Part shown: positions 17,212-37,060 of the stretch, in pieces
Position numbering within the stretch: position 1 is the first letter of the stretch
Layout of the letters: the number at the start of each line of letters is the position of its first letter
Assembly (NCBI GenBank): GCA_035576265.1
Contig: DATLWP010000292.1
Location: 1-40,301 of the forward strand
DNA: 40,301 bases
Direction of reading: 5' to 3'
Source of the DNA: Candidatus Polarisedimenticolia bacterium
GTDB taxonomy: Bacteria > Acidobacteriota > Terriglobia > Acidiferrales > UBA7541
Notes under the pieces: model-generated
What the model was told of the DNA's origin: nothing
Database searches by the model: none
What the model saw: the letters and a program-made list of their open reading frames with translations, nothing else
Program-made: the position numbers and the translations under genes

Positions 17212-19152
17212 ATGAGTAAGATCATTGGCATTGACCTGGGCACGACCAACTCCGTCGTGGCCGTGATGCAGGGAGGCGAGCCAGTCGTCATCCCCAACCA
17301 GGAAGGGGCTCGGACCACGCCATCGGTCGTGGGCATCACCAAATCCGGCGAGCGCCTGGTGGGCCAGGTGGCGAAGCGGCAAGCGATTACCAACCCCGAA
17401 AACACCGTCTATTCCATCAAGCGCTTTATGGGCCGCCACTACAACGAGGTCCAGGAAGAGGCCAAGCGCGTGCCCTACAAGACCGTCAAGGGGCCCCATG
17501 ACGACGCCCGCGTCGAAATCTCCGGCAAGACCTACAGCCCTCCCGAAATTTCGGCCATGATTCTCCAAAAGTTGAAGGCCGCTGCAGAAGATTTCCTCGG
17601 TGAGAAGGTGACCAAGGCAGTCATCACGGTCCCGGCATATTTCAACGACAGTCAGCGTCAAGCCACCAAACAGGCTGGCGAAATTGCGGGCCTCGAGGTC
17701 CTGCGCATCATCAATGAGCCAACGGCAGCCGCGCTTGCCTACGGCCTGGACAAGAAAAAGGACGAGACCATCGCCGTCTACGATCTCGGCGGAGGCACCT
17801 TCGATATTTCCATCCTGGAAGTGGGCGAAGGCGTCGTCGAGGTAAAGTCCACCAATGGCGACACGCACCTCGGCGGCGACGACATTGACCAGCGCGTCGT
17901 CGACTGGATGGTGGCCGAATTCAAGCGCGACCAGGGCATCGACGTAAGCAAGGACCGCATGGCGATTCAGCGGCTCAAGGAGGCGGCCGAGAAGTCCAAG
18001 ATCGAACTTTCCCAGCTGCAGGAGACGGAGATCAACCTTCCGTTTTTGACGGCCGATGCGTCGGGACCGAAACACCTGCAGTTGAAACTGTCCCGCGCCA
18101 AGCTCGAACAATTGATGGAAGAACTGCTGCAGCGGACCGTGGGCCCCGTCAAGCAGGCCCTGAGCGATGCGGGGCTGGCGCCGGACAAAATTGACGAAGT
18201 CGTTCTGGTCGGCGGCTCGACCCGAATTCCGCGCGTCGTGGACATCGTGAAGAAGCTCTTCAACGGGAAGGAGCCCCACAAGGGCGTCAATCCGGATGAA
18301 GTGGTTGCGGTCGGCGCGGCGATTCAAGGTGGTGTGCTCGGCGGCGAAGTGAAAGACATCTTGTTGCTCGACGTGACGCCGCTTTCGCTCGGCGTTGAGA
18401 CGCTCGGCGGGGTGATGACCGTGCTGATCCCGCGCAATACCACGATCCCCACGCGCAAGTCCGAGGTTTTCTCGACCGCCGCGGACAATCAGACATCGGT
18501 TGAAATCCACGTGCTCCAAGGGGAGCGGCCGGTCGCTACCGGCAATCGATCGCTCGGGAAATTCCATCTGATTGGGATTCCTCCAGCTCCGCGAGGCATG
18601 CCGCAAATCGAGGTGACGTTCGATATCGATGCGAACGGCATTCTCAACGTCTCGGCCAAGGACTCCGCGACGAACAAGGAGCAGAAGATCACCATCACTG
18701 CCTCCACCGGCCTGAGCAAGGACGAGGCCGAGCGTATGAAGAAAGAGGCCGATTCGCACGCCGAAGAGGATAAGGCGCACCTATCGGAAGTCGAAGCTCG
18801 CAATCGGCTCGACAGCCTCGTGTATCAGACCGAGAAGCTGATCAAGGAAAACCGCGAGAAGCTCGCGGAAGCGGACGTCAAGGCAGTCGAGGAAGCCATC
18901 GAAGAATCTCGCCGCGCTCTGACTGAAGGCGGTCTCGACAGGTTGAACGCGGCTGCGGATGCTCTGACCAAGGCTTCGCACCGCGTCGCCGAATCGCTCT
19001 ACAAGGCCCAGCAGGCCGCTGGAGCGGCCGGCGGAGCAGCGGGAGCCCCAGGCGCGGGCGATGGCGGAGCCGGTGGTGCCGCTCCTTCCGGACAGGGCGA
19101 AGTGGTGGACGCTGAATTCGTGGACGTGGACGAGTCGAAGAAACCCAATTGA
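17212..19152 (+). CDS. dnaK: Molecular chaperone DnaK (Hsp70)
   Basis: [29 protein letters not shown] and [11 protein letters not shown]. Gly/Ala-rich C-terminal tail ending in EFVDVDE. Confidence 0.98.
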
Positions 19153-19168
19153 ACGCTCCTTTATCTGG

Positions 19169-19209
19169 CGCTTGCCGGAGGTGGCTTCGATTGCTGCCCC
19201 CGGCAAGCG
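19169..19209 (+). other. Stem-loop between dnaK and the next ORF
   Basis: CGCTTGCCGG (19169-19178) pairs perfectly with CCGGCAAGCG (19200-19209), with a 21-nt loop. No U-tract follows, so it is more likely a processing, stability or attenuation element than a terminator. Confidence 0.35.
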
Positions 19210-19259
19210 GCGTCTGCTAGGACAAGAGAGCCTTACAACAGCTTTCCAGGGAGAACGCG

Positions 19260-19637
19260 TTGACGACCAGCGGCATCCGGCGGGTCGGCCCGCCTCAAGC
19301 AGTGCAGAAGGTGCGCGACAATCTCTATCTCGTCCAGGTCTCGATCACGGAATCGCCCTCCGGCGACTGGCGGCGTCTGTTTTACGATGCGCAGCGGGAT
19401 GTCCCCCCGGATTTTGCGCCGCGATCGGTTGAGATCACGGGAACATTTCTGAGGTTTAAGTCCGATCCGGCGAGCGTCGAGCAAAAGATCGCGCTGCTCG
19501 ACCGATGGATGGAAAGGGCCAGCCAAAAGGAAGCTGCCGTCGGCGGGCGCTCGGAGGGCCAGCGGCAGAAGAAAGAAGAGCTTGCGCGCGAGGCGCAAGA
19601 AATCGCCGAATGGAACGCGCGCTGGGCCAAGCTCTAA
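19260..19637 (+). CDS. Hypothetical protein (125 aa) in the position normally held by grpE
   Basis: TTG start 5 nt after GGGAGA. The composition looks protein-like (beta-rich N-terminal half, charged helical C-terminal half EAAVGGRSEGQRQKKEELAREAQEIAEWNARWAKL). I recognise no family, and it is not GrpE-like. Confidence 0.5.
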   Translation: MTTSGIRRVGPPQAVQKVRDNLYLVQVSITESPSGDWRRLFYDAQRDVPPDFAPRSVEITGTFLRFKSDPASVEQKIALLDRWMERASQKEAAVGGRSEGQRQKKEELAREAQEIAEWNARWAKL

Positions 19638-19742
19638 CGCGCCCGAGATGTTCTTGCTGCGGCGGCCTTCAGGCCGGCGGATTTCGATTCGTTTCAAGCA
19701 AGCGCCCGCCTGAATACGGCCGTCACGCAATATACGGCTGAC

Positions 19743-20906
19743 ATGCCAACGACAACCAAGCAGGACTATTACGAGCTGCTGGGAGTTCCGCGAAAGGCCT
19801 CCGTAAAGGATATCCGCGCGGCCTATCGCAAACTTGCGCGCAAATACCACCCAGACTTGAATCCCGGCGACAAATCCGCTGAGGAAAAATTCAAACAGAT
19901 CCAGGAAGCCTACGAAGTTCTTTCCGACTCAAAAAAGCGCCAGATGTATGACCAATTCGGGTTCAACGTGCCGGGACCCGCTGGCGGGCCTCCTCCGGGA
20001 GCGGGCTACCCCGGCGCGGCACCGGGCGACATCCATTTCGACTTCGGCGGATTCGATTTCGGCGGAGCTGCCGGAGGCGGTGCTACCAGTTTTCGCGATC
20101 TGTTCAGCCAATTCTTCCGCGGCGCCACTGCGGCACGGGCCGGACAGGAGCGCGAGCCGGGCACCGACCTCGAATATCAGATCGACATCACCTTTGCCGA
20201 GGCAATGCGCGGCACGGTGAAAAAGCTGAGCTTCACGCGGCTCGATGTATGCCAGGTTTGCCGCGGCGCGGGCGCAGCGCCAGGGGATGAAAAAGTCTGT
20301 CCCGCCTGCGGCGGTTCCGGCCAGGTGACGCAGCTCAGCGGCAAGATGCGCTTTCAGATCACCTGCTCGCGGTGCGGTGGCCGCGGCAGAATGCATACGC
20401 TCTGTCGGAATTGCGGCGGCGAGGGACGCGTGCGGCGCGTCGACACGCTCGACGTGCGCATTCCGCCGGGCGCCCAGACCGGATCGCGCGTGCGCGTTGC
20501 CGGTCGCGGCAACGCCGGCATGCACGGGGGACCTCCCGGCGATCTTTACATCGTCATGCAGGTTCAGCCGCACCCGTTCTTCGACCGCCGCGGCGACGAT
20601 CTCTACACCGTCGTGCCCGTGACCATCACCGAAGCCTCGCTCGGCGCGAAGGTCGACGTTCCGACCATCGACGGTCGCGCTCAGGTGCGCATTCCGCCCG
20701 GCACGAACAGCGGGAAAAGGCTCCGCCTGCGCGAGAAGGGTGCGCCCTCGGCGCGCCACCCCGGTAGGCGCGGCGACCAAATCGTCGAGGTTCAAGTGGT
20801 CGTGCCCAAGCCGGAGGACGAACGGGTGCGCAACCTCCTGCGCGAACTCGGCAAACTCGACCATGAAGACCCGCGCGCGGAGATCTTCTCCCGCGCGGTC
20901 ATGTAA
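19743..20906 (+). CDS. dnaJ: Molecular chaperone DnaJ (Hsp40)
   Basis: J-domain DYYELLGV...HPD. G/F-rich linker. Four CxxCxGxG zinc-finger repeats ([32 protein letters not shown]). Confidence 0.96.
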
Positions 20907-20916
20907 GGAGATGCCG

Positions 20917-21315
20917 ATGGCAGCGCGGCCCAGGAAAAAAGCGAAAGCCGGCTACATGATCAGCTCCGTCGCCGAGCTCTATCAGCTTCATCCCCAGACG
21001 TTGCGCCTTTACGAGCGGGTCGGCCTGCTGAAGCCGTCGCGCTCGCAGGGCAATACGCGCCTTTACACGGATGCGGATCTCGAACGCCTCGAAGTGATCC
21101 TCAATCTCACCCGCGAACTGGGCGTCAATCTCGCCGGCATTGAAATCATCCTCAACATGCGCGACAAGATGGCCGAAATGCAGTCGGAGATGGAAGCGTT
21201 CATCAAGTTCGTTCGCAACGAAGTGGCGCGTAATCTCACCGCCGAAGACGAGCGCCGCGTCCGCAACGCCATCGTCCGCGCCGCCCCGCGGCATGCCATC
21301 CGTGTGGAGAAATAA
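20917..21315 (+). CDS. hspR: MerR-family heat-shock repressor HspR
   Basis: The sequence YMISSVAELYQLHPQTLRLYERVGLLKPSRSQGNTRLYTDADLERLEVILNLTRELGVNLAGIEIIL is a MerR HTH of the HspR type. The gene lies directly after dnaJ. AAGGAG is at 20905-20910. ATG 20917 gives 6-nt spacing, and ATG 20911 is an alternative. Confidence 0.8.
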   Translation: MAARPRKKAKAGYMISSVAELYQLHPQTLRLYERVGLLKPSRSQGNTRLYTDADLERLEVILNLTRELGVNLAGIEIILNMRDKMAEMQSEMEAFIKFVRNEVARNLTAEDERRVRNAIVRAAPRHAIRVEK

Positions 21316-22704: not shown

Positions 22705-22802
22705 TACCCCGCGTTTTTCCTGGTGCTGCTTCCGCGTCCGGCGCCGCTGTGACTTTTGTCATTTGCCACAACCGCGTCCCGAGGCGTACAATGGCCGCGA
22801 AG

Positions 22803-22943
22803 TCTCCGACCTCCGGGTCCTAAAGGAGAGAAATCCCACGGACCCGAGGCGATGCCCGCATGAACTTGCGCGATATGGCGCGAGGCCATGTGGGCTGAGG
22901 GTTCGGGTGGAAACGCCCGCTCCTCCCATGCTTGGAAAGGAGA
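22803..22943 (+). promoter_or_regulatory. Candidate molybdenum-cofactor (Moco) riboswitch aptamer
   Basis: 5' TCTCCGAC (22803-22810) and 3' GGAAAGGAGA (22934-22943) resemble the conserved CUCCGAG / GGAAAGGAG ends of the Moco motif and can pair (TCTCC/GGAGA) as P1. Internal hairpins: CCTCCGGGTCC/GGACCCGAGG (22810-22849), GCCCGCATG/CATGTGGGC (22853-22895) and CGGGT/GCCCG around a GGAAAC loop. The element lies upstream of moaA, the classic context. Confidence 0.5.
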
Positions 22944-22976
22944 ATGTCCGGTATGCGGAAGCGCGCCGGATGCGTC

Positions 22977-23031: not shown

Positions 23032-24012
23032 ATGCTGCTCGCTGACAAATTCGGCCGCCAGATCACCGACCTGCGCGTTTCGGTCACCGACCGCTGCAAT
23101 TTCCGCTGCGTCTATTGCCGCTCGGCCAACCCGGAAAACCACATGCCCTCCCGCGAGATGCTCGAGTGGGAGGAATACGAGCGGCTCGTGCGGATTCTAG
23201 TCGGCATGGGCATCCGTAAGGTGCGAGTCACCGGCGGCGAACCGCTCGTTCGCCCCGGCGTCGAGGATTTCATCGCCCATCTGAAGGCGCTCGGCGTCCA
23301 GGATGTCTCGATGACCACCAACTCCTATCTCCTCGCGGAGCACTGCGATCGCCTCGTCGCCGCCGGCATGAACCGCATCAATATCAGCCTGGATTCGCTC
23401 GACCGCAGGAAGTTCGAGCGCATCACCCGCACTCGCACCTTCGATCAAGTCATCGCCGGCATCGACGCGGCCCAGGCTTCGCCGCTGCGCCCGGTGAAGG
23501 TCAACGCCGTGCTTGTCCGCGGCCTCAACGACGATGAGGTCGAGGCCTTCGCCGCCTTCGCGCGCGACCGCGATCTCATCATGCGCTTCATCGAATTCAT
23601 GCCCCTCGACGCCGACCGCACCTGGACACGCGACATGGTCGTCACCGGTGCGGAAGTCTATGCGCGGATTTCGGCACGCTGGCCCCTCGTGCCCGTCGCG
23701 CACGAACGCAGCGAAACCGCCCGCAAATACCGCTTCGCCGACGGCCGTGGCGAAATCGGACTGATCTCTCCCGTCTCGCAGCCCTTCTGTGGATTCTGCT
23801 CGCGCATCCGGCTCACCGCCGATGGGAAGCTCCGCACCTGTCTTTTCAGCAAGGAGGACCACGATCTGAAGCCGTTCCTGCGCGGCGGCGCGACCGACCG
23901 GGAAATCGGCGACGAGGTTCTTTCTATCGTCGAGGGAAAGGAGAAAGGGCATCGCATCAACGAGCCGGACTTTGTGCCGCCATCGCGCACGATGGTTTCG
24001 ATCGGCGGCTGA
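23032..24012 (+). CDS. moaA: GTP 3',8-cyclase MoaA (radical SAM, Moco biosynthesis)
   Basis: DLRVSVTDRCNFRCVYC (CX3CX2C), GGEPLVR, and the C-terminal cluster FCGFCSRIRLTADGKLRTCLF. The start is set at ATG 23032 (MLLADKFGRQITDLR). Confidence 0.92.
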   Translation: MLLADKFGRQITDLRVSVTDRCNFRCVYCRSANPENHMPSREMLEWEEYERLVRILVGMGIRKVRVTGGEPLVRPGVEDFIAHLKALGVQDVSMTTNSYLLAEHCDRLVAAGMNRINISLDSLDRRKFERITRTRTFDQVIAGIDAAQASPLRPVKVNAVLVRGLNDDEVEAFAAFARDRDLIMRFIEFMPLDADRTWTRDMVVTGAEVYARISARWPLVPVAHERSETARKYRFADGRGEIGLISPVSQPFCGFCSRIRLTADGKLRTCLFSKEDHDLKPFLRGGATDREIGDEVLSIVEGKEKGHRINEPDFVPPSRTMVSIGG

Positions 24013-27370: not shown

Positions 27371-28144
27371 ATGGCAGGAGGCCAAGCCCTTCTCGTACTG
27401 CTAGCGCTGCTCTTTGCGCTGGCGGCCGGTCTCGTCGGTTGTTTTGCTTTGATGAAGCGAATGGTTCTGGCCAGCGATGTGATTTCTCACTTGGCTCTTC
27501 CCGGACTAGGAATCGCGTATCTACTGAAGTTCAACCCGTTGATCGGCGGCGCTGCCACACTGTTTCTCGGCACGCTTCTGGTCTGGCAACTCCAGAAGAA
27601 AACCGGCTTGGCTGCCGATGCCTCGATCGGCGTGGTCTTTGCCTCAGCCCTGGCAATTGGCGCGGCAGTGACTCCGCGAGAGGATCTCATAGAGGCTCTT
27701 TTCGGCGAGTTGCGAAGCATATCGCTCCTCGGATTCTTTCTCGGCCTGGTCGCCACGCTGCTGGTGGTTCTTTCCGTCATTCTCCTAAAGGACCGCCTCG
27801 CGCTCAGCGTCTTTTCCCCGGACTTGGCGGAAGCCACCGGCGTCAACGTAGCTCGCGTGAATCTCATCTATTTCTTGGTTTTCAGCCTGACGGTCTTGGT
27901 GGGCCTTCGGTTTATGGGCACGCTCCTGGCCAGCGCGTTGATCATCTTGCCTGCTGCGACCGCTCGGCACTTGACGGAAAAGCTCTCACACTTCCTTCTC
28001 GTTTCCTCGGCGATTAGCCTCGTCTCGGTCCTCGCCGGGTTCGTGCTCAACGCGCTTGTGCTTAGGCTTTCCACTGTGGGGCCGACCATCATCATCTTCT
28101 CGGCCCTCCTGTTTGCCCTTAGCTTTCTCAAAAGAACCACGTAA
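27371..28144 (+). CDS. Metal ABC transporter permease (ABC-3 family, ZnuB-like)
   Basis: About 8 TM segments. Blocks such as MKRMVLASDVISHLALPG and LIILPAATARHLT are typical of the ABC-3 family. The start is set at ATG 27371. The 400-aa track ORF is an out-of-context 5' extension across the ATPase gene. Confidence 0.88.
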   Translation: MAGGQALLVLLALLFALAAGLVGCFALMKRMVLASDVISHLALPGLGIAYLLKFNPLIGGAATLFLGTLLVWQLQKKTGLAADASIGVVFASALAIGAAVTPREDLIEALFGELRSISLLGFFLGLVATLLVVLSVILLKDRLALSVFSPDLAEATGVNVARVNLIYFLVFSLTVLVGLRFMGTLLASALIILPAATARHLTEKLSHFLLVSSAISLVSVLAGFVLNALVLRLSTVGPTIIIFSALLFALSFLKRTT

Positions 28145-28213
28145 GCTCTGCGTCCGACCGCCGCGCCGGCGCACGCTGCCCTCCCAAATGGTGCCCCGAC
28201 CGTCCCCAGCCAA

Positions 28214-28234
28214 AATCGCATCCCCACTGCGATT
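28214..28234 (+). other. Small hairpin downstream of the permease gene
   Basis: AATCGCA (28214-28220), loop TCCCCAC, TGCGATT (28228-28234), followed by CTTTGC. This is a weak terminator candidate. Its left arm also resembles the TAATCGCTACAC repeat core. Confidence 0.3.
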
Positions 28235-28271
28235 CTTTGCGCCTGCAAGTCGAGTCGGCTCAGCGGACTGC

Positions 28272-28610
28272 AGTAATCGCTACACGTGTACCGGCTTGCG
28301 TCGTGTGATAGCGTGGAAGTGTGGTTATGCAGCTCGAATGCAAACTCGGCCCAAGGCAAGCCCCGCACCGGGCGAAGCTTTCCGCCAGCGGGCATCGAGC
28401 GACTCTAATCGCTACACAAGTGGAAACCGCCGATCCGACAAGGATCGGCGTCCCGAGCGACCAACGGGAGCCGAGGGACCTTTCCCATCGCTCGTACGGT
28501 CTCCCTTTTCAAGCTTCGACCGTGCGGAATCTAATCGCTACACAAGTGGAAACCGGAGCCGCGCTATCTCGCTGGAAACAAACGCCTCGGCCCATTTCTA
28601 ATCGCTACAC
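28272..28610 (+). repeat. Four direct copies of a TAATCGCTACAC-core repeat (two of them identical 26-mers) in a non-coding gap
   Basis: TAATCGCTACAC occurs exactly at 28274, 28406, 28532 and 28599. Copies 2 and 3 are the identical 26-mer TCTAATCGCTACACAAGTGGAAACCG (28404-28429 and 28530-28555). Copy 1 continues as the diverged GTGTACCGG. Copy 4 shares only TCTAATCGCTACAC. A second shared box, GCT[C/G]GAA..CAAAC..CTCGGCCCA, occurs at 28332-28353 and 28571-28594. Confidence 0.8.
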
Positions 28611-28628
28611 TTGCGCGAGGGTCAGGCT

Positions 28629-30758
28629 GTGACTCACTCTGCCGAAAATCGCCTGAAGGATTCCGCGAGCCCCTATCTCCGCTCCGCCGCCCATCAGCCC
28701 ATCGACTGGCACGAGTGGGGCGACGAAGCCTTTCAAAAAGCGCACGCCGAAGGAAAGCCCGTGCTGCTCGACATTGGCGCCGTCTGGTGCCACTGGTGCC
28801 ACGTCATCGACCGCGAAAGCTACGAAAATCCCGAAATCGCGAGCCTGATCAACGATCTCTACATTCCCGTGAAAGTGGACCGCGACGAGCGGCCCGACGT
28901 GGACGCGCGCTACCAGTCCGCCGTCAGTGCGATTTCCGGCCAGGGCGGTTGGCCGCTCACGGCCTTCCTCACGCCGGACGGCAAACCGTTTTTCGGCGGC
29001 ACCTACTTCCCGCCCGACGACGCCCACGGCCGCCCCGGATTCAAGCGCATCCTGGTCGCGATTTCCGAAGCTTTCAAAACGCGCCGCGCGGAAGTGGAGA
29101 CGTCCGCGCAGGCGCTCGAACAAGCCGTCGCCAAGGCCGAAGTTTTTCACGGCGCCCGCGGCACTTTCGACGCTCGAAGTGTCACTGCAGTCGTCCAATC
29201 GGCGATCCGCCAATTCGACCAGCAGCATGGCGGTTTCGGCCACGCTCCGAAATTTCCGCAAGCGAGCACCGTTGATCTGCTGCTCGAGCGTTACCAGGCC
29301 ACGCGCGACGACGAATTGTTGCATGTCGCCGAGCACACGCTCGAAGCGATGGCGCGCGGCGGCGTCTACGATCAGATTGGCGGCGGGTTTCATCGCTACT
29401 CCGTGGACGCGCGCTGGTGCGTTCCGCACTTCGAAAAGATGTCTTACGACAATTCCGAGCTTCTGAAAAATTTTCTTCACGGCTATCAGGTGACCGCGAA
29501 GCCGCTCTATCGCGACATCGTCGAGGGAATCATCGCCTGGGTCACTGAGGTTCTTTCGGATCAGCAGCGCGGCGGATTCTACGCCAGTCAGGATGCCGAC
29601 CAGACTCTCGACGACGACGGCGATTACTTTACTTGGACGCTCGCTGAGGTGCGCGCCGTGCTGTCTCCCGAAGAAGCGCGCGCCATCGAGGTCTACTACG
29701 ATGTCGAGGCGCACGGCGAGATGCACCACAATCCCGAGAAAAATGTCCTGTGGGTTGCCTCCAGCATCGTCGCTCTCGCCAACAAGCTGGAATTGGACGA
29801 AGCCAGCGCTCGCGTCCTCCTCGCCCGCGCTCGCGGAAAACTGCTCGCGGCGCGGCGTAATCGCCGTCCCACCCCCGCCGTGGACGAAACGCATTACGTC
29901 GGCTGGAACGCGATGTTTGCCTCCGCCTATCTAGAAGCCGCGCGCGTGCTCGACCGCACCGATTGCCGCGCGTTTGCGCTGAAGACGCTCGATCGCATCC
30001 TCGCCGAAGGGTGGGAGTCTACGAAGGGTTTTCTGCACCGCGTCGGTGGCCCGCGCCTCGAAGGAACGCTCGACGACCAGATTTTCATGATCGCGGCACT
30101 CCTCGACGCCTGGGAAACCACGTTCGACCGCCGCTACTTTGAAGTTGCCGAGCGCGCCGCAAGACTCGCCATCGAGCGCTTCGGCGATTCCGAAGGCGGC
30201 GGCTTCTTCGACCGCGCGAAAGACGCCGCGCCGATGGGCGGCCTCGAGATCCGCCGCAAGCCGCTGCAAGATTCGCCCACGCCGGGAGCGAATTCTGTCG
30301 CTGCCATCGTCCTCGACCGGCTTTACGCGTACACCGGCGAGCGTCTCTACCGCGAATGGGCGGAGAAAACGCTCGAAGCGTTCGTCGGCCCGATCCCGCA
30401 GTACGGCCTCTTTGCCGCGACCTACGGACTCGCGGCTTTGCTGCATGCGCGCCATGCGGTGCAGGTGGTCGTGACGGGCACCGCGGGAGATTCACGAGCC
30501 TCCGAACTGGAAAGAACCGCCCATGAAACCTATCGCTTCGGAAAATCGGTCCTGCGCGTCACGCCCGAGCGCCTGGTATCCGGAGCGCTGCCCGCCACAC
30601 TCCGTGAAACGCTGCCTCACCTCGACGCCAGGAAGCCGGAAGCTCTCGTCTGCGTCGAGAGCACTTGTCATCCTTCGGTCACCACTCCGCAGAGACTTGC
30701 GTCGCTGCTCGTGGAAGTGGCGGCAGATGCGGCGGGAGCCACGGGCGGCGGAAAGTGA
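28629..30758 (+). CDS. Thioredoxin-domain protein of the DUF255/YyaL family (thioredoxin-like N-domain plus six-hairpin glycosidase-like domain)
   Basis: SPYLRSAAHQPIDWHEWGDEAFQKA, GAVWCHWCHVIDRESYENPEIA, VKVDRDERPDVD, GGWPLTAFLTPDGKPFFGGTYFP, PKFPQ and YDQIGGGFHRYSVD. GTG 28629 lies 8 nt after GAGGG, and TTG 28611 is an alternative. Confidence 0.85.
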   Translation: MTHSAENRLKDSASPYLRSAAHQPIDWHEWGDEAFQKAHAEGKPVLLDIGAVWCHWCHVIDRESYENPEIASLINDLYIPVKVDRDERPDVDARYQSAVSAISGQGGWPLTAFLTPDGKPFFGGTYFPPDDAHGRPGFKRILVAISEAFKTRRAEVETSAQALEQAVAKAEVFHGARGTFDARSVTAVVQSAIRQFDQQHGGFGHAPKFPQASTVDLLLERYQATRDDELLHVAEHTLEAMARGGVYDQIGGGFHRYSVDARWCVPHFEKMSYDNSELLKNFLHGYQVTAKPLYRDIVEGIIAWVTEVLSDQQRGGFYASQDADQTLDDDGDYFTWTLAEVRAVLSPEEARAIEVYYDVEAHGEMHHNPEKNVLWVASSIVALANKLELDEASARVLLARARGKLLAARRNRRPTPAVDETHYVGWNAMFASAYLEAARVLDRTDCRAFALKTLDRILAEGWESTKGFLHRVGGPRLEGTLDDQIFMIAALLDAWETTFDRRYFEVAERAARLAIERFGDSEGGGFFDRAKDAAPMGGLEIRRKPLQDSPTPGANSVAAIVLDRLYAYTGERLYREWAEKTLEAFVGPIPQYGLFAATYGLAALLHARHAVQVVVTGTAGDSRASELERTAHETYRFGKSVLRVTPERLVSGALPATLRETLPHLDARKPEALVCVESTCHPSVTTPQRLASLLVEVAADAAGATGGGK

Positions 30759-30973: not shown

Positions 30974-31441
30974 ATGGAAATTATCCACCAGCTCGGCGAG
31001 TTGTTTCTCGAAGCTGTGCCTACGATCGTCATCGTCCTCCTATTCTATGTGTTTCTGCGCTGGGCCTTCTTCCAGCCGATTCAAAAGGCGATGGCGGAGC
31101 GGGCGGCCCGAATCGAAGGTGCCCGCGCGGATGCTGCGGCCGTGGAGGCTTCCGCGCGGCAGGAGCTCGATTCCTACCACGAAGCCCTGCGCCAAGCCCG
31201 CGCCGAAATCTACGCGGAGGCGGAAGCCGCGCGCCAGGCCGCCCTGGACAGTCGTTCCAAGCTCCTCAAGGCCATGCATGCCCGCGCGCAAGAAGAAGTT
31301 TCCTCGGCGAAGAAACGGATTGCGACGGAGCTCGAGTCCGCCCGGGCAGAGATCGAGCGTCAGGCTCCCGCCCTCGCAAGCGAAATCGCTCGCGCGATTC
31401 TCGAAAGACCAGCTCCTTTGCGCGGAGGGCCGGCCAGATGA
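30974..31441 (+). CDS. atpF: F-type ATP synthase subunit b' (second b-type stalk subunit)
   Basis: A single N-terminal TM helix (VPTIVIVLLFYVFLRWAFF) is followed by a long Ala/Glu/Arg-rich helix. The stop overlaps the next start (ATGA at 31438-31441). Confidence 0.78.
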   Translation: MEIIHQLGELFLEAVPTIVIVLLFYVFLRWAFFQPIQKAMAERAARIEGARADAAAVEASARQELDSYHEALRQARAEIYAEAEAARQAALDSRSKLLKAMHARAQEEVSSAKKRIATELESARAEIERQAPALASEIARAILERPAPLRGGPAR

Positions 31442-32025
31442 TGCGGCTCATCCGGCTCGTTGCCCCCCGCATGGGGTCTCTCGTCCTTTCCTTCTTTCTC
31501 GTCGCCGCGCCCGCCCTGGCGCAGGAAGGCGAATCCTCGCCCGCCGATTCGCCCACGGGCCAGATCTTCCGCTGGCTGAATTTCGCGATCATCTTCGGAT
31601 TGATTGTTTACGCGCTGCGGAAAGCGGGCCCTTATTTTCGCAGCCGGTCGGAAGAGATTTCCCGGAAGATCGCCGACGGCACCCGAGCGCGGGAGGCGGC
31701 AGAACAACAGCGCCGCGAAGCGCAAGCGAAGCTCGCTGGCATTCCAGAAGTGGTCGCCAAATTACGGGCGGAGGCGAAGCGCGCGGCCGAGGCCGAGGCC
31801 GAACGTCTTCGCGCGCTGGCCAAGGCCGAGGCGGAGACCATTGAACGAGCCGCGCGGGCGGAGATCGCCGCAGCGGAACGAGCCGGGCGCCTTAAGCTGA
31901 AGGCGCTCGCCGCGCGAATGGCCGTCGAGCGCGCGGAAGCCGTATTGCGACAGGAGTTGACGCCGAACGCGGAGGCGAGTCTCTTCCGCACGTTCGTCGC
32001 CGAGCTCGAAGGGAGTGCGAATTGA
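31438..32025 (+). CDS. atpF: F-type ATP synthase subunit b
   Basis: An N-terminal hydrophobic, signal-like stretch plus a TM helix (WLNFAIIFGLIVYAL) is followed by an extended AEAR-rich helix. The gene is translationally coupled on both sides. Confidence 0.78.
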   Translation: MMRLIRLVAPRMGSLVLSFFLVAAPALAQEGESSPADSPTGQIFRWLNFAIIFGLIVYALRKAGPYFRSRSEEISRKIADGTRAREAAEQQRREAQAKLAGIPEVVAKLRAEAKRAAEAEAERLRALAKAEAETIERAARAEIAAAERAGRLKLKALAARMAVERAEAVLRQELTPNAEASLFRTFVAELEGSAN

Positions 32026-32561
32026 GCGGAGCAGTCGCATCGCGGTACGCGGCCGCACTCGCCGATGTGGCGCTTGAGCACAAGACCGCGGACCGCGTGA
32101 AGCGCGACCTTACCGCGTTCGTCGATGCGTTCTATTCCGCAGCCGATCTGCGGATTTTCCTCGATAGTCCCGCGGTCGCCCGCGATGCGAAGCAGAAAGT
32201 GATCGAAAAGATCGCGGCAAAAATGGATCTGACGTCGGCGGTCCGAAATTTTGTCTACGTTTTGGTGGACCGCCGCCGCACGGATATGCTGCGCGAGATT
32301 CAGCAGGCGTTCGATGCGGAATTGAACGCCCGGCTCGGCATTGCCGAGGCCGAAGTAACCTCGGCGCGGGAGCTGAGCGCCGCGGAGCGTAAAGAGTTGA
32401 CCACCGCGCTGGAGAGGCGCACGGGCAAGAAGATCGAAGCGCACTTCCGCCGGGATCCGTCTCTCGTGGGCGGCGCCGTCGTGCGCGTCGGCTCAACCGT
32501 CTATGACGGTTCCGTGCGCGAACAGTTGATCCGGCTGCGCGAGCAGCTCGAAGCGGAATAG
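32022..32561 (+). CDS. atpH: F-type ATP synthase subunit delta (OSCP)
   Basis: ASRYAAALADVA N-terminus and the C-terminal DPSLVGGAVVRVGSTVYDGSVREQL block. The TTG start overlaps the upstream stop (TTGA). Confidence 0.85.
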   Translation: MSGAVASRYAAALADVALEHKTADRVKRDLTAFVDAFYSAADLRIFLDSPAVARDAKQKVIEKIAAKMDLTSAVRNFVYVLVDRRRTDMLREIQQAFDAELNARLGIAEAEVTSARELSAAERKELTTALERRTGKKIEAHFRRDPSLVGGAVVRVGSTVYDGSVREQLIRLREQLEAE

Positions 32562-32570
32562 GAGCCAGGA

Positions 32571-34112
32571 ATGGCGAACATTAAAGCGGACGAAATCACG
32601 AAGATACTGCGCGAGCAGATCGAAAATTATCAGCAGGCGGTCTCGGTTGAAGAGGTCGGCTCGGTCATTTCGGTCGGCGACGGCATTGCGCGCATTCACG
32701 GCCTGGATCGCTGCATGGCCGGCGAGATGCTCGCGTTCCCGCACGATGTGTCGGGCATCGCGCTCAACCTCGAAGAAGATCAGGTAGGCGCCGTGCTGCT
32801 CGGCGACTACACCGAGATCCGAGAAGGCGATACCGTCAAGCGCACGAACAAAATTATGTCTGTGCCGGTCGGAGAGGCTCTCATCGGGCGCGTCGTGAAC
32901 CCTCTGGGCGAACCGCTCGACGGCAAAGGCCCCGTCCTGACCCAGCATTACAACCCGCTCGAACGCCTGGCGCCGGGCGTGGTCGATCGCCAGCCCGTGC
33001 GCGAACCGGTGCAGACCGGCGTCAAAGCGATCGATTCGATGATCCCGATCGGACGCGGGCAGCGCGAATTGATCATTGGCGACCGCCAGACAGGCAAGAC
33101 CGCGATCATTCTCGACACCATCCTGAACCAGAAGGGCGGAGATCTGATCTGCATCTACTGCGCAATCGGGCAGAAGCGCTCGACGATCGCTCAGGTGGTG
33201 AAAGCGCTCTCCGACTATGGCGCGCTCGACTACAGCATCGTCGTGGCAGCTTCGGCCACCGAGCCGGCCACGATGCAATTCATCGCGCCCTTCGCCGCCG
33301 CCGCCATGGGCGAATATTTTCGCGACACAAAGCGACACGCGATCTGCTTCTACGACGACCTTTCGAAGCATGCGCAGTCCTACCGCGAAATTTCGCTGTT
33401 GCTGCGCCGTCCGCCGGGGCGCGAAGCATTCCCCGGGGACGTCTTCTTTTTGCATTCGCGCCTCCTCGAACGCGCGGCGAAATTGAACGATCAGTTGGGC
33501 GCGGGCTCGCTGACAGCACTGCCCGTGATCGAGACGCAGGCGGGCGACGTTTCGGCCTACATTCCGACGAACGTGATTTCGATCACCGACGGCCAGATTT
33601 ATCTGGAAGCGGATCTTTTCAACGCGGGCATCCGGCCCGCCATTAACGCCGGCATTTCCGTGAGCCGCGTCGGCGGCAACGCGCAGATCAAGGCCATGCG
33701 CCAGGTGGCCGGCACGCTCCGCCTGGACATGGCCCAGTATCGCGAGCTGGCTGCCTTCGCGCAGTTCGGCTCCGAGCAGCTCGACAAGGCCACGCAGGCG
33801 CAGCTTGCTCGCGGCCAGCGTCTGGTGGAAATCCTCAAGCAGGATCAGTACCAGCCGTTGGCGGTGGAGAAGCAGGTTTTGATCATATTTGCCGGCGGCA
33901 ATCGCTATCTCGACGACCTCGAAGTCTCGGAAGTTCGCCGGTTTGAGCGAGAGCTCTATCCGTTCGTTGAAACCAACTACGGCGGAATTTTCAAGACTCT
34001 GCGAGAGAAAAAGACCATTGATGACGAGCTGAAGGCGGAGATGATCAAGGCGCTCGATGCCTTTAAGGAAAGTTTCCTGGCAAGCCGGGGGGCCGCCGCG
34101 GCCGCAGACTGA
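32571..34112 (+). CDS. atpA: F-type ATP synthase subunit alpha
   Basis: GDRQTGKT Walker A, and the [22 protein letters not shown] and [22 protein letters not shown]-type blocks. Confidence 0.98.
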
Positions 34113-34169
34113 CGCCGTCGGGCGATTGCCCAGGGAACGATGCGCGTTTGACGGACCACTAAATTTCCA

Positions 34170-35114
34170 ATGCCCACACTTCTTGATTATCGGCGGCGCA
34201 TTCGCTCGGTGAAGAGCACGCAGCAAATCACCCGGGCCATGAAGTTTGTCGCGGCTGCGAAACTGCGCCGGGCCCAGGAGGGCGTGTTCGCGGCGCGGCC
34301 CTATGCCCGCGAAATCCTGCGCGTGCTGCGCTCGGCTGCGGCGCGGATGGAGCTGGCGGTGCATCCGCTGCTCGAGCGTCGGCCGGAGGAGCGGGTCCTG
34401 GTCGTGGTCCTCACGGGAGATCGCAGCCTCTGCGGAGCGTTCAACGCGAATGTGATTCGCCGCGCGACCGCCTTTCTCCATGAAAACGCCTCGAAAAATC
34501 CGCAAGTCGTTGCGATCGGCAAGAAGGGCCGCGACACGCTGCGCAAGCGCGGCTGGAAGCTCGCCGCCGAGTATCTCAATGTGTCGGCCAAGGTGGATTT
34601 CCTCGCCGCCAAAGACATCGCCGCGAAGATCGCGGAATTGTACGCCGCGCACGAAGTGGATGCCGTATACACCGTGTATAACGAATTTAAAAACGTCCTG
34701 GTACAAAAGCTGCGCACGGAAAAGCTGCTTCCCATCGATCCGGGCGTGTTGGTGTCGGAATTTTCGCAGTCAGGAGAAAGGCCGTCCGCCAGCGGAACCG
34801 GGCGCGGGGAAACGCTGCCGAAAGACCTCTCGCCCGCCGGAGATACCTTGCTCGTGGATTACATCTACGAGGAACCCATCCGCGAGATTTTCGACGCGCT
34901 GGTGCCGCGCTACCTTGAGTCCGAGGTCTTTCGCGTTCTGCTCGAATCGGCTGCGGCCGAGCACGCCGCCCGGATGACCGCGATGGATTCCGCCACGCGC
35001 AACGCGTCCGAACTGATTGATAAATTGACGCTCGAAATGAACAAGATTCGCCAGGCGGGCATCACCAAAGAGTTGATCGAAATTGTCAGCGGCGCGGCCT
35101 CAGCAACGTCCTAG
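34170..35114 (+). CDS. atpG: F-type ATP synthase subunit gamma (with an extra Ser/Gly/Pro-rich loop)
   Basis: RRRIRSVKSTQQITRAMKFVAAAKLRRAQ N-terminus and AAEHAARMTAMDSATRNA...ITKELIEIVSGA C-terminus. About 41 residues lie between LLPI and YIYEEP. Confidence 0.95.
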   Translation: MPTLLDYRRRIRSVKSTQQITRAMKFVAAAKLRRAQEGVFAARPYAREILRVLRSAAARMELAVHPLLERRPEERVLVVVLTGDRSLCGAFNANVIRRATAFLHENASKNPQVVAIGKKGRDTLRKRGWKLAAEYLNVSAKVDFLAAKDIAAKIAELYAAHEVDAVYTVYNEFKNVLVQKLRTEKLLPIDPGVLVSEFSQSGERPSASGTGRGETLPKDLSPAGDTLLVDYIYEEPIREIFDALVPRYLESEVFRVLLESAAAEHAARMTAMDSATRNASELIDKLTLEMNKIRQAGITKELIEIVSGAASATS

Positions 35115-35132
35115 CGCGCCCGGTAAAGATGA

Positions 35133-36596
<1,464 letters not shown>

Positions 36597-36625
36597 TCCG
36601 GGCGCGCCCGACCAGGATCGAACGA

Positions 36626-37060
36626 ATGCTACCCGAGACGATGGAGCTTCAAGTCGTGACCCCCGAGCGGCACGTGCTGCAGGAAAGCGTGCACGCGCTC
36701 GAGGTGCCTGGGAAGGAAGGCTATCTCGGCATTCTGCCGGGCCACGCACCGCTGATTACGGAGCTCGGCATCGGAATTCTGGCGTACCGCAAAGGCTCCG
36801 ACACTCGCTACCTCACGATCATTCACGGCTACGCCGAAGTTCTGCCCGACCGCGTCATCATCCTCGCCGAACTTTCCGAGCGCGCCGAGGAGATCGATAT
36901 CGACCGCACCCGCGCCGCCCGCGAACGGGCCCAGGCCGAACTTGCAAAGGCTGTCTCTGGGGACGCCGACTGGCAGCGCGCAAGCTTTGCGCTCGCGCGC
37001 GCCATGGTCCGCCTCCAAGTGGCTTCCCGGGGCGGCGCTGCGGCGGGAACACTTGAATAG
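36626..37060 (+). CDS. atpC: F-type ATP synthase subunit epsilon
   Basis: LQVVTPER...GILPGHAPLIT beta-sandwich signature plus a C-terminal helical hairpin. Alternative start at ATG 36641. Confidence 0.92.
   Translation: MLPETMELQVVTPERHVLQESVHALEVPGKEGYLGILPGHAPLITELGIGILAYRKGSDTRYLTIIHGYAEVLPDRVIILAELSERAEEIDIDRTRAARERAQAELAKAVSGDADWQRASFALARAMVRLQVASRGGAAAGTLE

Follow-up and report, generated by a model that had tools for sequence, protein, structure and literature searches.

Repeats upstream of a DUF255 gene belong to an apparently undescribed ~81-nt non-coding module family of soil Acidobacteria

What are the four short repeats that lie between two genes in a 40,301-nucleotide (nt) stretch of DNA from Candidatus Polarisedimenticolia bacterium? 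This stretch, taken at its full length and called the window throughout, contains a gap at positions 28145–28628 that is flanked by the gene of an ABC-3 (Zn/Mn-type) permease, which ends at 28144, and by a DUF255/Thioredox_DsbH gene. An exact scan of the window located the 12-mer TAATCGCTACAC four times, on the plus strand at 28274, 28406, 28532, and 28599, with spacings of 132, 126, and 67 nt, just as the first-pass annotation of this DNA had reported. When up to two mismatches were allowed, the 40-kb window contained six matches, the two extra ones being chance-like; shuffled controls gave a mean of 1.4 and reached six in 0 of 100 trials, so the earlier judgment that the repeats exceed chance also stands.

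All four 12-mers belong to a modular, strand-specific family of non-coding sequences; they are not a series of independent units. One module of ~81 nt (28530–28609) has copies 3 and 4 as its terminal direct repeats, and these two repeats, its GTAAC-like box, and its AAACAAAC box all align with the family. Copy 2 arrived with a 126-nt insertion or duplication bounded by a 26-mer, and copy 1 is a solitary repeat beside a predicted promoter. The features concerned are as follows; labels of the form L081 denote the loci and contigs that were compared, and RBS stands for ribosome-binding site.

28274–28285, plus strand: repeat copy 1, a solitary module repeat (GTAATCGCTACAC), 23 nt 5' of the -10 hexamer
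28332–28353, plus strand: GCTCGAATGCAAACTCGGCCCA, a degenerate copy of the 3' part of the module linker, similar to 28571–28594 and kept in L081–L083
28404–28429, plus strand: repeat copy 2, the first TCTAATCGCTACACAAGTGGAAACCG 26-mer, left direct repeat of the lineage-specific 126-nt insertion/duplication
28430–28529, plus strand: the 100 nt inside the 126-nt insertion, including most of the 9-bp hairpin at 28428–28450 and the segment 28432–28474
28530–28609, plus strand: complete ~81-nt module (nhmmer, profile positions 3–81 of 81, 36.2 bits, E 5e-9)
28530–28543, plus strand: 5' repeat of the module, TCTAATCGCTACAC, which is repeat copy 3 (module alignment)
28546–28560, plus strand: variant internal segment of the module, GTGGAAACCGGAGCC (module alignment)
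28564–28570, plus strand: CTATCTC, the GTAAC box of the window module, in which TATC replaces TAAC
28574–28584, plus strand: linker box of the module, GGAAACAAACG (module alignment)
28595–28610, plus strand: 3' repeat of the module, TTTCTAATCGCTACAC, which is repeat copy 4 (module alignment)
28629–30758, plus strand: DUF255/Thioredox_DsbH gene, most likely start GTG at 28629, RBS GAGGG at 28617–28621

The GTG start is supported by a Pfam match that begins ~5 codons downstream and by the alignment of the start position in orthologues. Several further details that had been read from the gap were recovered: the 26-mer TCTAATCGCTACACAAGTGGAAACCG occurs twice in identical form (28404–28429 and 28530–28555), a second box is shared by GCTCGAATGCAAACTCGGCCCA (28332–28353) and GCTGGAAACAAACGCCTCGGCCCA (28571–28594), the 9-bp hairpin folds as claimed, and the last repeat ends at 28610, leaving 18 nt to the GTG. 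A proposed long-range pairing held in part, in that GCCGAGG (28470–28476) is complementary to CCTCGGC (28585–28591), but the complementarity is lost in L083, the closest relative with both segments. The degenerate linker copy at 28332–28353 suggests that the first repeat unit is a decayed module. No tandem array was detected in the gap by Tandem Repeats Finder.

Across the family, the module consists of a repeat X of the form TTTCTAATCG(NN)ACAC, a loop, a partial complement of the repeat (X', commonly CGATTAGAA), GTAAC, AAAACAAAC, and X again ~66 nt after the first. The direct repeat is 13–17 nt long, with a period of 64–69 nt and a mode of 66, and the linker contains two invariant boxes. In most copies X, loop, and X' constitute a 9–10-bp inverted repeat; in the window's subfamily, whose other members are L158 #1-2, L162 #1-2, and L138 #1, X' is replaced by GGAAACCGGAWTC. 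The GGAAAC ending that had hinted at a CRISPR handle is explained by this segment, a subfamily variant of the internal part of the module. The repeats are the most conserved parts, and the sequence just inside the 5' repeat is variable.

The family was collected from metagenome contigs by means of a pattern modeled on the conserved sequence beside the last repeat (AAACAAAYR, 8–12 nt, TTTCTAMTCG, 0–2 nt, ACAC), which returned 97 stretches, including the window's own contig (OBLQ010000049.1). Only two of the 97 (L097 and L181) lack the remaining module features, so chance matches to the pattern are few, an estimate that is based on these two clearly unrelated matches and not on a known database size. 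The pattern fixes part of the linker and the 3' repeat, whose conservation among the metagenome stretches is therefore partly by construction, and leaves the 5' repeat, X', and the GTAAC box unselected. A profile hidden Markov model built from the pattern matches gave 147 matches in the 1.4 Mb searched, including the window module listed above, and 99 distinct full-length copies, the window's among them, were aligned (majority consensus ATTTCTAATCGnCACAnnnnGnnATTAGAAnTCCCCGTAACTCnnnGAAAACAAACGnCnGnnnCCnTTTCTAATCGACAC). The profile also identified copies away from the DUF255 start in loci from Acidobacteriota metagenome-assembled genomes (MAGs; L023, L032, and two in L038). The rough density is ~4 unselected matches per 0.74 Mb of Acidobacteriota loci, from which copy number per genome is a rough guess. 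Scanned viral contigs contained 0 matches, on which ground a phage or viral origin of the module was rejected, and a coding origin was rejected in view of conservation in contiguous blocks with indels that are not multiples of 3.

The family is widespread in Acidobacteriota-type contigs and absent from Rfam. A search of window positions 28000–28750 against Rfam 15 (including Acido-1, Acido-Lenti-1, riboswitches, and ribozymes) at E ≤ 10 gave nothing relevant, the sole match being Yar_3, a region of a fly long non-coding RNA, at 12 bits and E 2.3 against a gathering score of 50. Nothing was matched by the modules of L013, L080, L019, and L004 (E ≤ 5) or by those of 12 further module-bearing loci at gathering score; the claim that the repeats fit no known RNA family was thus upheld in the window and 16 related loci. 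Literature searches by motif sequence and by keywords for acidobacterial interspersed repeats found no description of the module, and this ~81-nt non-coding element of soil Acidobacteria is apparently undescribed so far. Two deflating outcomes had been foreseen by the first-pass annotation. The existence of the family refutes a relic of purely local slippage; as to the second, the repeat does belong to a dispersed repeat family, but one that is absent from Rfam and retained at orthologous loci.

How firmly is the module attached to the DUF255 gene? The best DUF255 protein matches (64–79% identity) come from MAGs named 'Candidatus Acidiferrales', Acidobacteriota, or Terriglobia. The exact 12-mer was found in 0 of 80 orthologous loci from GTDB, and the repeat layout of orthologues was seen only after mismatches were allowed and repeated k-mers upstream of the gene were analyzed:

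L013: TTTTCTAATCG(G/A)CACAC twice, 65 nt apart, and a third copy; the last ~20 nt before the start codon
L080: TTTCTACTCGACAC twice, 67 nt apart; the last ~20 nt before the start codon
L019: TTACTCGACAATG twice, 67 nt apart; the last ~20 nt before the start codon
L004: AAGTGTCACAC twice, 67 nt apart; the pair ~115 nt upstream of the DUF255 start

Upstream of DUF255, the module is found in the window's clade, in L013, and in L080; L019 and L004 have diverged versions, and L025 and L011 have a solo X-like site beside the RBS. On the DUF255 protein tree, the module-bearing loci are patchy within one clade. Among closer relatives, obtained by exact-protein look-up, L081 (92% amino acid identity) and L082 (88%) carry three repeat copies, and L083–L086 (88%) carry four, like the window. 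Alignment showed that the 126-nt unit (28404–28529) is present in the window and L083–L086 and absent from L081 and L082; its inserted 100 nt (28430–28529) are 88% identical to those of L083–L086. The modules of the window, L013, and L080 are 72–75% identical (72% for the window versus either of the other two), exceeding all 200 shuffles, and the leader between promoter and module has random-level identity in the same three loci. Because the module was kept while the adjoining leader was randomized, it has been maintained here by selection or by conversion from other copies.

Individual loci show additional features. In L004 (3880–3950), the repeat pair is followed by a hairpin resembling an intrinsic terminator (CGCCAATCtcccGATTGGCG, then TATTTT), which suggests a possible attenuation or a separate short transcript at that locus. 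In L013 (3957–4007), a 16-codon upstream open reading frame (ORF; ATGACGGCC...CAATGA) runs through the 3' repeat, its stop overlapping the DUF255 ATG (ATGA); a conserved upstream ORF was considered and rejected, being confined to L013 and not kept in the window, L080, or L081–L083. Directly 3' of the DUF255 gene, the window contains an F-type ATP synthase operon (b, b', delta, alpha, gamma, beta, epsilon; 30974–37060), a neighborhood that is kept in L081 but not in L082 or L083.

Is the module transcribed? Two further features of the gap bear on this question.

28212–28238, plus strand: terminator-like hairpin (AAAATCGCA-N7-TGCGATT, then CTTT), which by its sequence would end upstream transcription
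28295–28314, plus strand: predicted promoter of the DUF255 leader (CTTGCGT, 4 nt, extended -10 TGATAGCGT), based on conservation

The extended -10 occupies 28306–28314, with the -10 hexamer TAGCGT at 28309–28314 and a predicted transcription start at ~28321. A sigma-70 consensus scan of 27900–28800 gave no promoter-like site, and the promoter call is therefore based on conservation: the motif GTGTGATAGCGTGGA is kept in L013 and L081–L083 and has a similar form in the repeat-less L011, L018, L022, and L026. The block 28270–28330, which comprises copy 1 and the following GTGTGATAGCGTGGA, is nearly invariant in L081–L083. Copy 1 is part of the palindrome TACACGTGTA, and it starts 35 nt before the -10 in the window and in L013 alike. 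Sigma-54 and extracytoplasmic function (ECF) promoter readings of the copy-1 region were dismissed on spacing, by inspection and reasoning only. The 5' arm of the hairpin at 28212–28238 resembles the repeat core (AATCGC); the hairpin is kept in L081 and L082 and degenerate in L083, despite different upstream genes, and is the start of a conserved block that accompanies the DUF255 gene.

Signals of the same kind recur across the family. Within 400 nt upstream of modules, the extended -10 pattern TGnTAnnnT, the class to which the window's TGATAGCGT belongs, occurs 50 times on the module strand and 12 times on the other, and a -35/-10 pattern 21 times versus once; both patterns peak 100–175 nt 5' of modules. 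The module strand is C-rich and G-poor, with a GC skew of -0.28 in the module and -0.14 to -0.21 across the 400 nt upstream. A -10-like motif (TANNNT) showed no positional enrichment at a constant distance past the 3' repeat across the family, and a terminator-like hairpin lies within 150 nt downstream on the module strand in only 6 of 99 modules. A promoter-like layout with TTGACA/TTGCNT 4–5 nt before the TG of an extended -10 (e.g. gaTTTGACAgcgaTGTTATAAT; the usual spacing is 17 nt) was seen in L144, L148, L177, L089, L013, and the window (28295–28314), and may represent a lineage-specific promoter class or an additional binding site.

Genes around modules were called with a purpose-written codon-usage model that was trained and checked on the window. 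By these calls the modules are intergenic throughout, except that a module at L134 is overlapped by a single weak ORF call, and they lie in long gaps, with a median of 940 nt. Module and downstream gene share a strand in 54 cases and differ in 18; where the genes on either side are in tandem, 25 modules point the same way as the genes and 7 are antisense. Modules often occur two or three per strand, 140–570 nt apart. The same-strand promoter motifs, the excess of C over G, and the orientation bias together suggest that the modules are transcribed.

The genes themselves do not share a function. Those downstream of modules (n = 44) fall into 70 Pfam families, none found in more than two genes and with no single functional class, and the other flanking genes (n = 70) into 118 functionally unrelated families. 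Neither transposase, recombinase, reverse transcriptase, nor Cas appears among the most frequent Pfam families listed for these 114 genes, which are not enriched for mobility or regulator functions, and no Y1_Tnp was seen among the flanking genes examined. A Pfam scan of the called genes of the window, in which one small call (19302–19637) and three larger ORFs had no Pfam match, likewise found no cas, TnpB/IscB, reverse-transcriptase, nuclease, transposase, or recombinase genes, bearing out the earlier statement that cas genes are lacking. Elsewhere in the window are a dnaK-dnaJ-MerR-family (HspR-like) gene cluster (17212–21315) and, at 22792–22958 on the plus strand, a molybdenum cofactor (Moco)/tungsten riboswitch aptamer (RF01055, 59.5 bits), the only Rfam match at gathering score in the window, which lies directly upstream of a radical-SAM MoaA-like gene (Mob_synth_C and Radical_SAM, ~23032–24012).

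Modules share their gaps with other repeated sequences. The ~43-nt hairpin-bearing segment 28432–28474 of the window (CCGATCCGACAAGGATCGGCGTCCCGAGCGACCAACGGGAGCC) is 88% identical to L114:1177–1219, on an unrelated contig and ~70 nt upstream of another module, and represents a second short interspersed repeat family. A conserved non-coding unit of ~700 nt with two modules occurs in L095, L096, L107, L125, L154, L165, and L182 (e.g. L154:3300–3960) in varied gene contexts; it opens with a strong sigma-70-type promoter (cTTGAC, 17–18 nt, TGnTAAcGT/TATAAT), contains several conserved GC-rich hairpins (e.g. GGCACAGGCTGGAGTTGGCCTGTGTGCC and GGCCCGTTCACGGGCC), had no match in Rfam, and is a candidate long non-coding RNA or composite repeat. 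From this unit and the recurrence of 28432–28474 in L114, module-bearing intergenic regions can be described as mosaics of short repeats.

Other sequences near modules were noted as well. Low-complexity tracts rich in C/T or CA precede many modules (cctctgcctcctttgcttcc..., cactcgccactagccactcg..., cacgagtcacgaattacgagtcac...; for example L092:640–690, L100, L103, L164, L124, and L126) and add to the C-over-G skew, giving a rut-like composition. In a subfamily comprising L088, L138, L158, L162, and L171, the 3' repeat is followed by AAAAAG and a GC-rich hairpin (GCCACCCCCCGGGGGAGTGGC), for example after each L162 module; on the opposite strand, this combination is a canonical intrinsic terminator ending at the module. 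Terminator-like sites around modules number 14 on the reverse strand versus 6 downstream and 4 upstream on the forward strand. In L125 (1861–1959, minus strand), the gene for a bacterial small signal recognition particle RNA follows a module of the same strand at a distance of ~130 nt.

The strongest covariation in the family is one of identity, in that the two bases after TCG are alike in the 5' and 3' repeats. Mutual information at these positions is 1.12 and 0.84 bits, and the bases are 82–83% identical between repeats, in the concordant classes AC, CA, TC, CT, GG, CC, and GT; the window's module is one of six CT/CT copies. Among module pairs with interiors at least 80% identical, changes at both ends were concordant in 30 cases and discordant in 2. 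Within the TC/CA group, every 5' repeat has CTATTCG where every 3' repeat has CTAATCG, a persistent difference that does not fit plain target-site duplication or regeneration of the whole repeat. X' showed no covariation with the dinucleotide, no cis partner for it was found, and no empty-site alleles of the module were found in the 1.4 Mb. Ideas for the match include local conversion, matched central regions for site-specific recombination, and class-specific trans RNAs.

If the module is transcribed, does it fold? Conservation in the module is mainly of primary sequence, and individual sequences fold with no unusual stability. X' has pairing potential with both copies of X (74.6% of cells paired for the 5' X and 78.2% for the 3' X), only slightly above shuffled controls. 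Downstream of the 3' repeat, runs of G resembling a Shine-Dalgarno sequence occur within 22 nt in 25 of 99 modules versus ~8–10 of 99 background windows (~2.5-fold). A possible likeness of CCCCTTTCTAA to the 3' end of 16S rRNA was given no weight. In the window, one helix involves the RBS directly.

28584–28627, plus strand: predicted hairpin of 28584–28593 (GCCTCGGCCC) with 28619–28627 (GGGTCAGGC), overlapping the RBS in part and holding repeat copy 4 in its loop

This hairpin has a minimum free energy (MFE) of -17.1 kcal/mol (z = -1.64) and a duplex energy of -16.5 versus a permuted mean of -10.4, and it could conceivably serve as a translation-control helix. In six DUF255 loci (the window, L013, and L080–L083), the stretch just before the last repeat shows complementarity to the RBS/start region, with duplex energies of -10.2 to -16.5 kcal/mol versus permuted means of -6.8 to -10.4. 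An MFE topology with the repeat in the loop is common to all six, formed by differing sequences, and four of the six loci are close relatives.

The reading that we favor, and to which we give an even chance, is that the modules work as RNA, serving as cis elements in long leaders, the window offering three transcribed copies of the motif, the last abutting the RBS, for a trans factor and/or for alternative pairing. Under this reading, ~28321–28628 would be transcribed whole as the 5' leader of DUF255, and the module would act in cis at the RNA level by presenting mostly unstructured, C/A-rich copies of X. A trans-acting factor, either protein or RNA, would bind these copies, and/or they would pair alternatively with X' and the RBS region; either event would tune the translation or stability of the downstream mRNA. 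Since X' is reduced to GGAAACCGG in the window's subfamily, factor binding would be likelier here than a hairpin switch. Of the options raised by the first-pass annotation, a multi-module structured leader comes closest, the repeats lying between a conserved extended -10 (28306–28314) and the start codon, but the word "structured" is not supported, as no conserved fold was found.

Several results weigh against an RNA-level role. RNAalifold returned a consensus of 0 pairs on the 99 module copies and 0 on 7 DUF255 leaders, the X:X' helices contain few compensatory changes, and a linker helix (CCG:CGG) has no support beyond 1–2 pairs. The z-score of the RBS-sequestering hairpin is non-significant in four of the six DUF255 loci, and a family-wide helix enclosing the 3' repeat in its loop is unsupported (p = 0.53). 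Roughly one module in four is antisense or faces a convergent gene. Strand-specific (single-stranded DNA) transposition could be another source of the orientation bias and skew, and the conservation of primary sequence, including a 10-bp inverted repeat with an 8–10-bp spacer, also fits a DNA-binding protein.

Among the alternatives, the one that survives best, although we consider it somewhat unlikely, is an interspersed DNA repeat, selfish or neutral (REP/BIME- or MITE-like, non-autonomous), that spread through transposition or recombination and was then locally duplicated, its position in the DUF255 leader being incidental and without regulatory role. Dispersal over many unrelated intergenic contexts in same-strand clusters, intergenic mosaics of several short repeats, the patchy distribution on the DUF255 tree, and a 126-nt insertion with 26-nt direct repeats that is polymorphic among close relatives would all be natural for such an element. 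The concordance of the flanking dinucleotide at both ends (30:2) resembles a target duplication, but the CTATTCG/CTAATCG difference beside the concordant bases argues against a simple one, and there is no empty site in the 1.4 Mb. The termini are direct and not inverted repeats, and they are the most conserved part of the module with variable sequence just inside the 5' one, unlike transposon ends. No transposase or recombinase was found among the most frequent Pfam families of the 114 neighboring genes, and none of the viral contigs carried the module. Incidental placement is also at odds with a module that remains 72–75% identical at an orthologous locus with a randomized flanking leader, and with the same-strand enrichment of promoters.

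Unlikely, in our estimate, are protein sites at the DNA level, with TTTCTAATCG, an 8–10-bp spacer, and CGATTAGAAA making up an operator or a tyrosine-recombinase-type core, and the third repeat a half-site that shares the same spacer half; in the window, copy 1 (~-36 to -47) would then be an activator or repressor site of the DUF255 promoter. Conservation of primary sequence without RNA covariation, the A-tract in the linker, and the fixed 35 nt from copy 1 to the -10 in the invariant block (window and L013) are in keeping with such sites. The inverted 10-bp arms across an 8–10-bp spacer point the same way, but the arm X' is mostly lost in a whole subfamily, including the window, with the rest of the module kept. 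Matched spacers are a requirement of recombinase sites like lox and FRT, and the variable dinucleotide is indeed matched between both direct repeats; however, no regulator or recombinase gene is linked (114 flanking genes). Further difficulties are that differing X variants occur on one contig (L158 and L162), which is hard to reconcile with a single DNA-binding specificity, that the strong strand asymmetry of composition and orientation is unexpected for double-stranded DNA, and that no -10 lies at a fixed distance past the 3' repeat across the family.

Quite unlikely is a programmable or self-matching element whose mechanism needs matched sequences at both ends. One form would be site-specific recombination or excision with matched "overlap" regions, the ~66-bp unit being a reversible insertion in promoter-proximal DNA. 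In the other, a class-specific trans RNA would recognize both repeats, and a small-RNA partner would carry GUGU(N'N')CGAUUAGAAA. Were it true, the module would represent a previously unknown regulatory or mobile system common in soil Acidobacteria.

Tandem small-RNA genes, with every repeat unit an independent gene, had also been proposed and are very unlikely: same-strand module clusters elsewhere (L158, L162, and L098) and promoters 5' of the first module would suit them, but the window has a single promoter-like element and no terminator was found for its units, terminator-like hairpins within 150 nt downstream are confined to the 6 of 99 modules noted above, and the window units are non-homologous to each other except for the repeat. 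A decayed or atypical CRISPR-like or guide-RNA array is hardly credible, since the "spacer" between copies 3 and 4, whose 67-nt spacing had invited the idea together with the GGAAAC after two copies, is itself conserved in ~100 other loci, the spacing is irregular (132/126/67) with a repeat core of only 12–16 nt, and cas, TnpB/IscB, reverse-transcriptase, and nuclease genes were not found among the called genes of the window or the 114 genes flanking other copies.

Acidobacteriota are among the most abundant soil bacteria, and their non-coding DNA and gene regulation are almost uncharted. What began as an odd local repeat is now a defined family, with a consensus, a profile, ~100 aligned copies, and a strand, located in many long promoter-bearing intergenic regions, and it explains the unusual length of intergenic gaps in Acidobacteriota MAGs. 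A role as a cis-acting RNA element would point to a regulator that works globally and post-transcriptionally in the phylum; should the module instead prove to be mobile or recombining DNA, its direct-repeat architecture and matched variable dinucleotide would imply an unusual mechanism.

How does the module compare with known systems? Like the REP/BIME elements of enterobacteria, it is short, non-coding, intergenic, present in many copies, and found in mosaics with other short repeats; most copies also have a palindromic unit (X, loop, X') beside a conserved linker, and the module is probably transcribed with neighboring genes. Unlike them, it has direct repeats as termini, its palindrome is dispensable in one subfamily, its sequence is unrelated, its copies are located chiefly in long 5' regions behind promoters and not at gene 3' ends, and the examined flanking genes included no RAYT/Y1 transposase. 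With the BOX elements of Streptococcus pneumoniae and Correia/MITE-type repeats, the module shares a modular build, a small size (~80–150 nt), an intergenic location, and the capacity to join an mRNA leader between promoter and start codon. BOX elements are, however, composed of boxA-boxB(n)-boxC modules, and MITEs have terminal inverted repeats and short target duplications, whereas the module has terminal direct repeats of 13–17 nt with a ~66-nt period.

Among regulatory leaders, operators with multiple sites (e.g. the GGA sites of CsrA, one overlapping the Shine-Dalgarno sequence) resemble the module in having several short motif copies in the 5' leader, the last beside the RBS, in many unrelated genes. 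This likeness is one of layout only; the module motif is longer (12–16 nt) and, unlike CsrA-type operators, is set within a conserved 81-nt module. As in attenuators (1:2 versus 2:3 versus 3:4), X' can pair with either X in most members, and in the DUF255 loci the region of the 3' copy can pair with the RBS; unlike attenuators, the module is without a terminator, leader peptide, or energetic signal, covaries little, and has a degenerate X' in the window copy. CRISPR arrays, finally, share with the module direct repeats, a ~66-nt period, and a location in non-coding DNA, but the module has two repeats per unit, a short repeat, a conserved intervening sequence, no cas genes, and a 26-mer that occurs only twice, and the family thus cautions against reading such repeats as CRISPR-like arrays.

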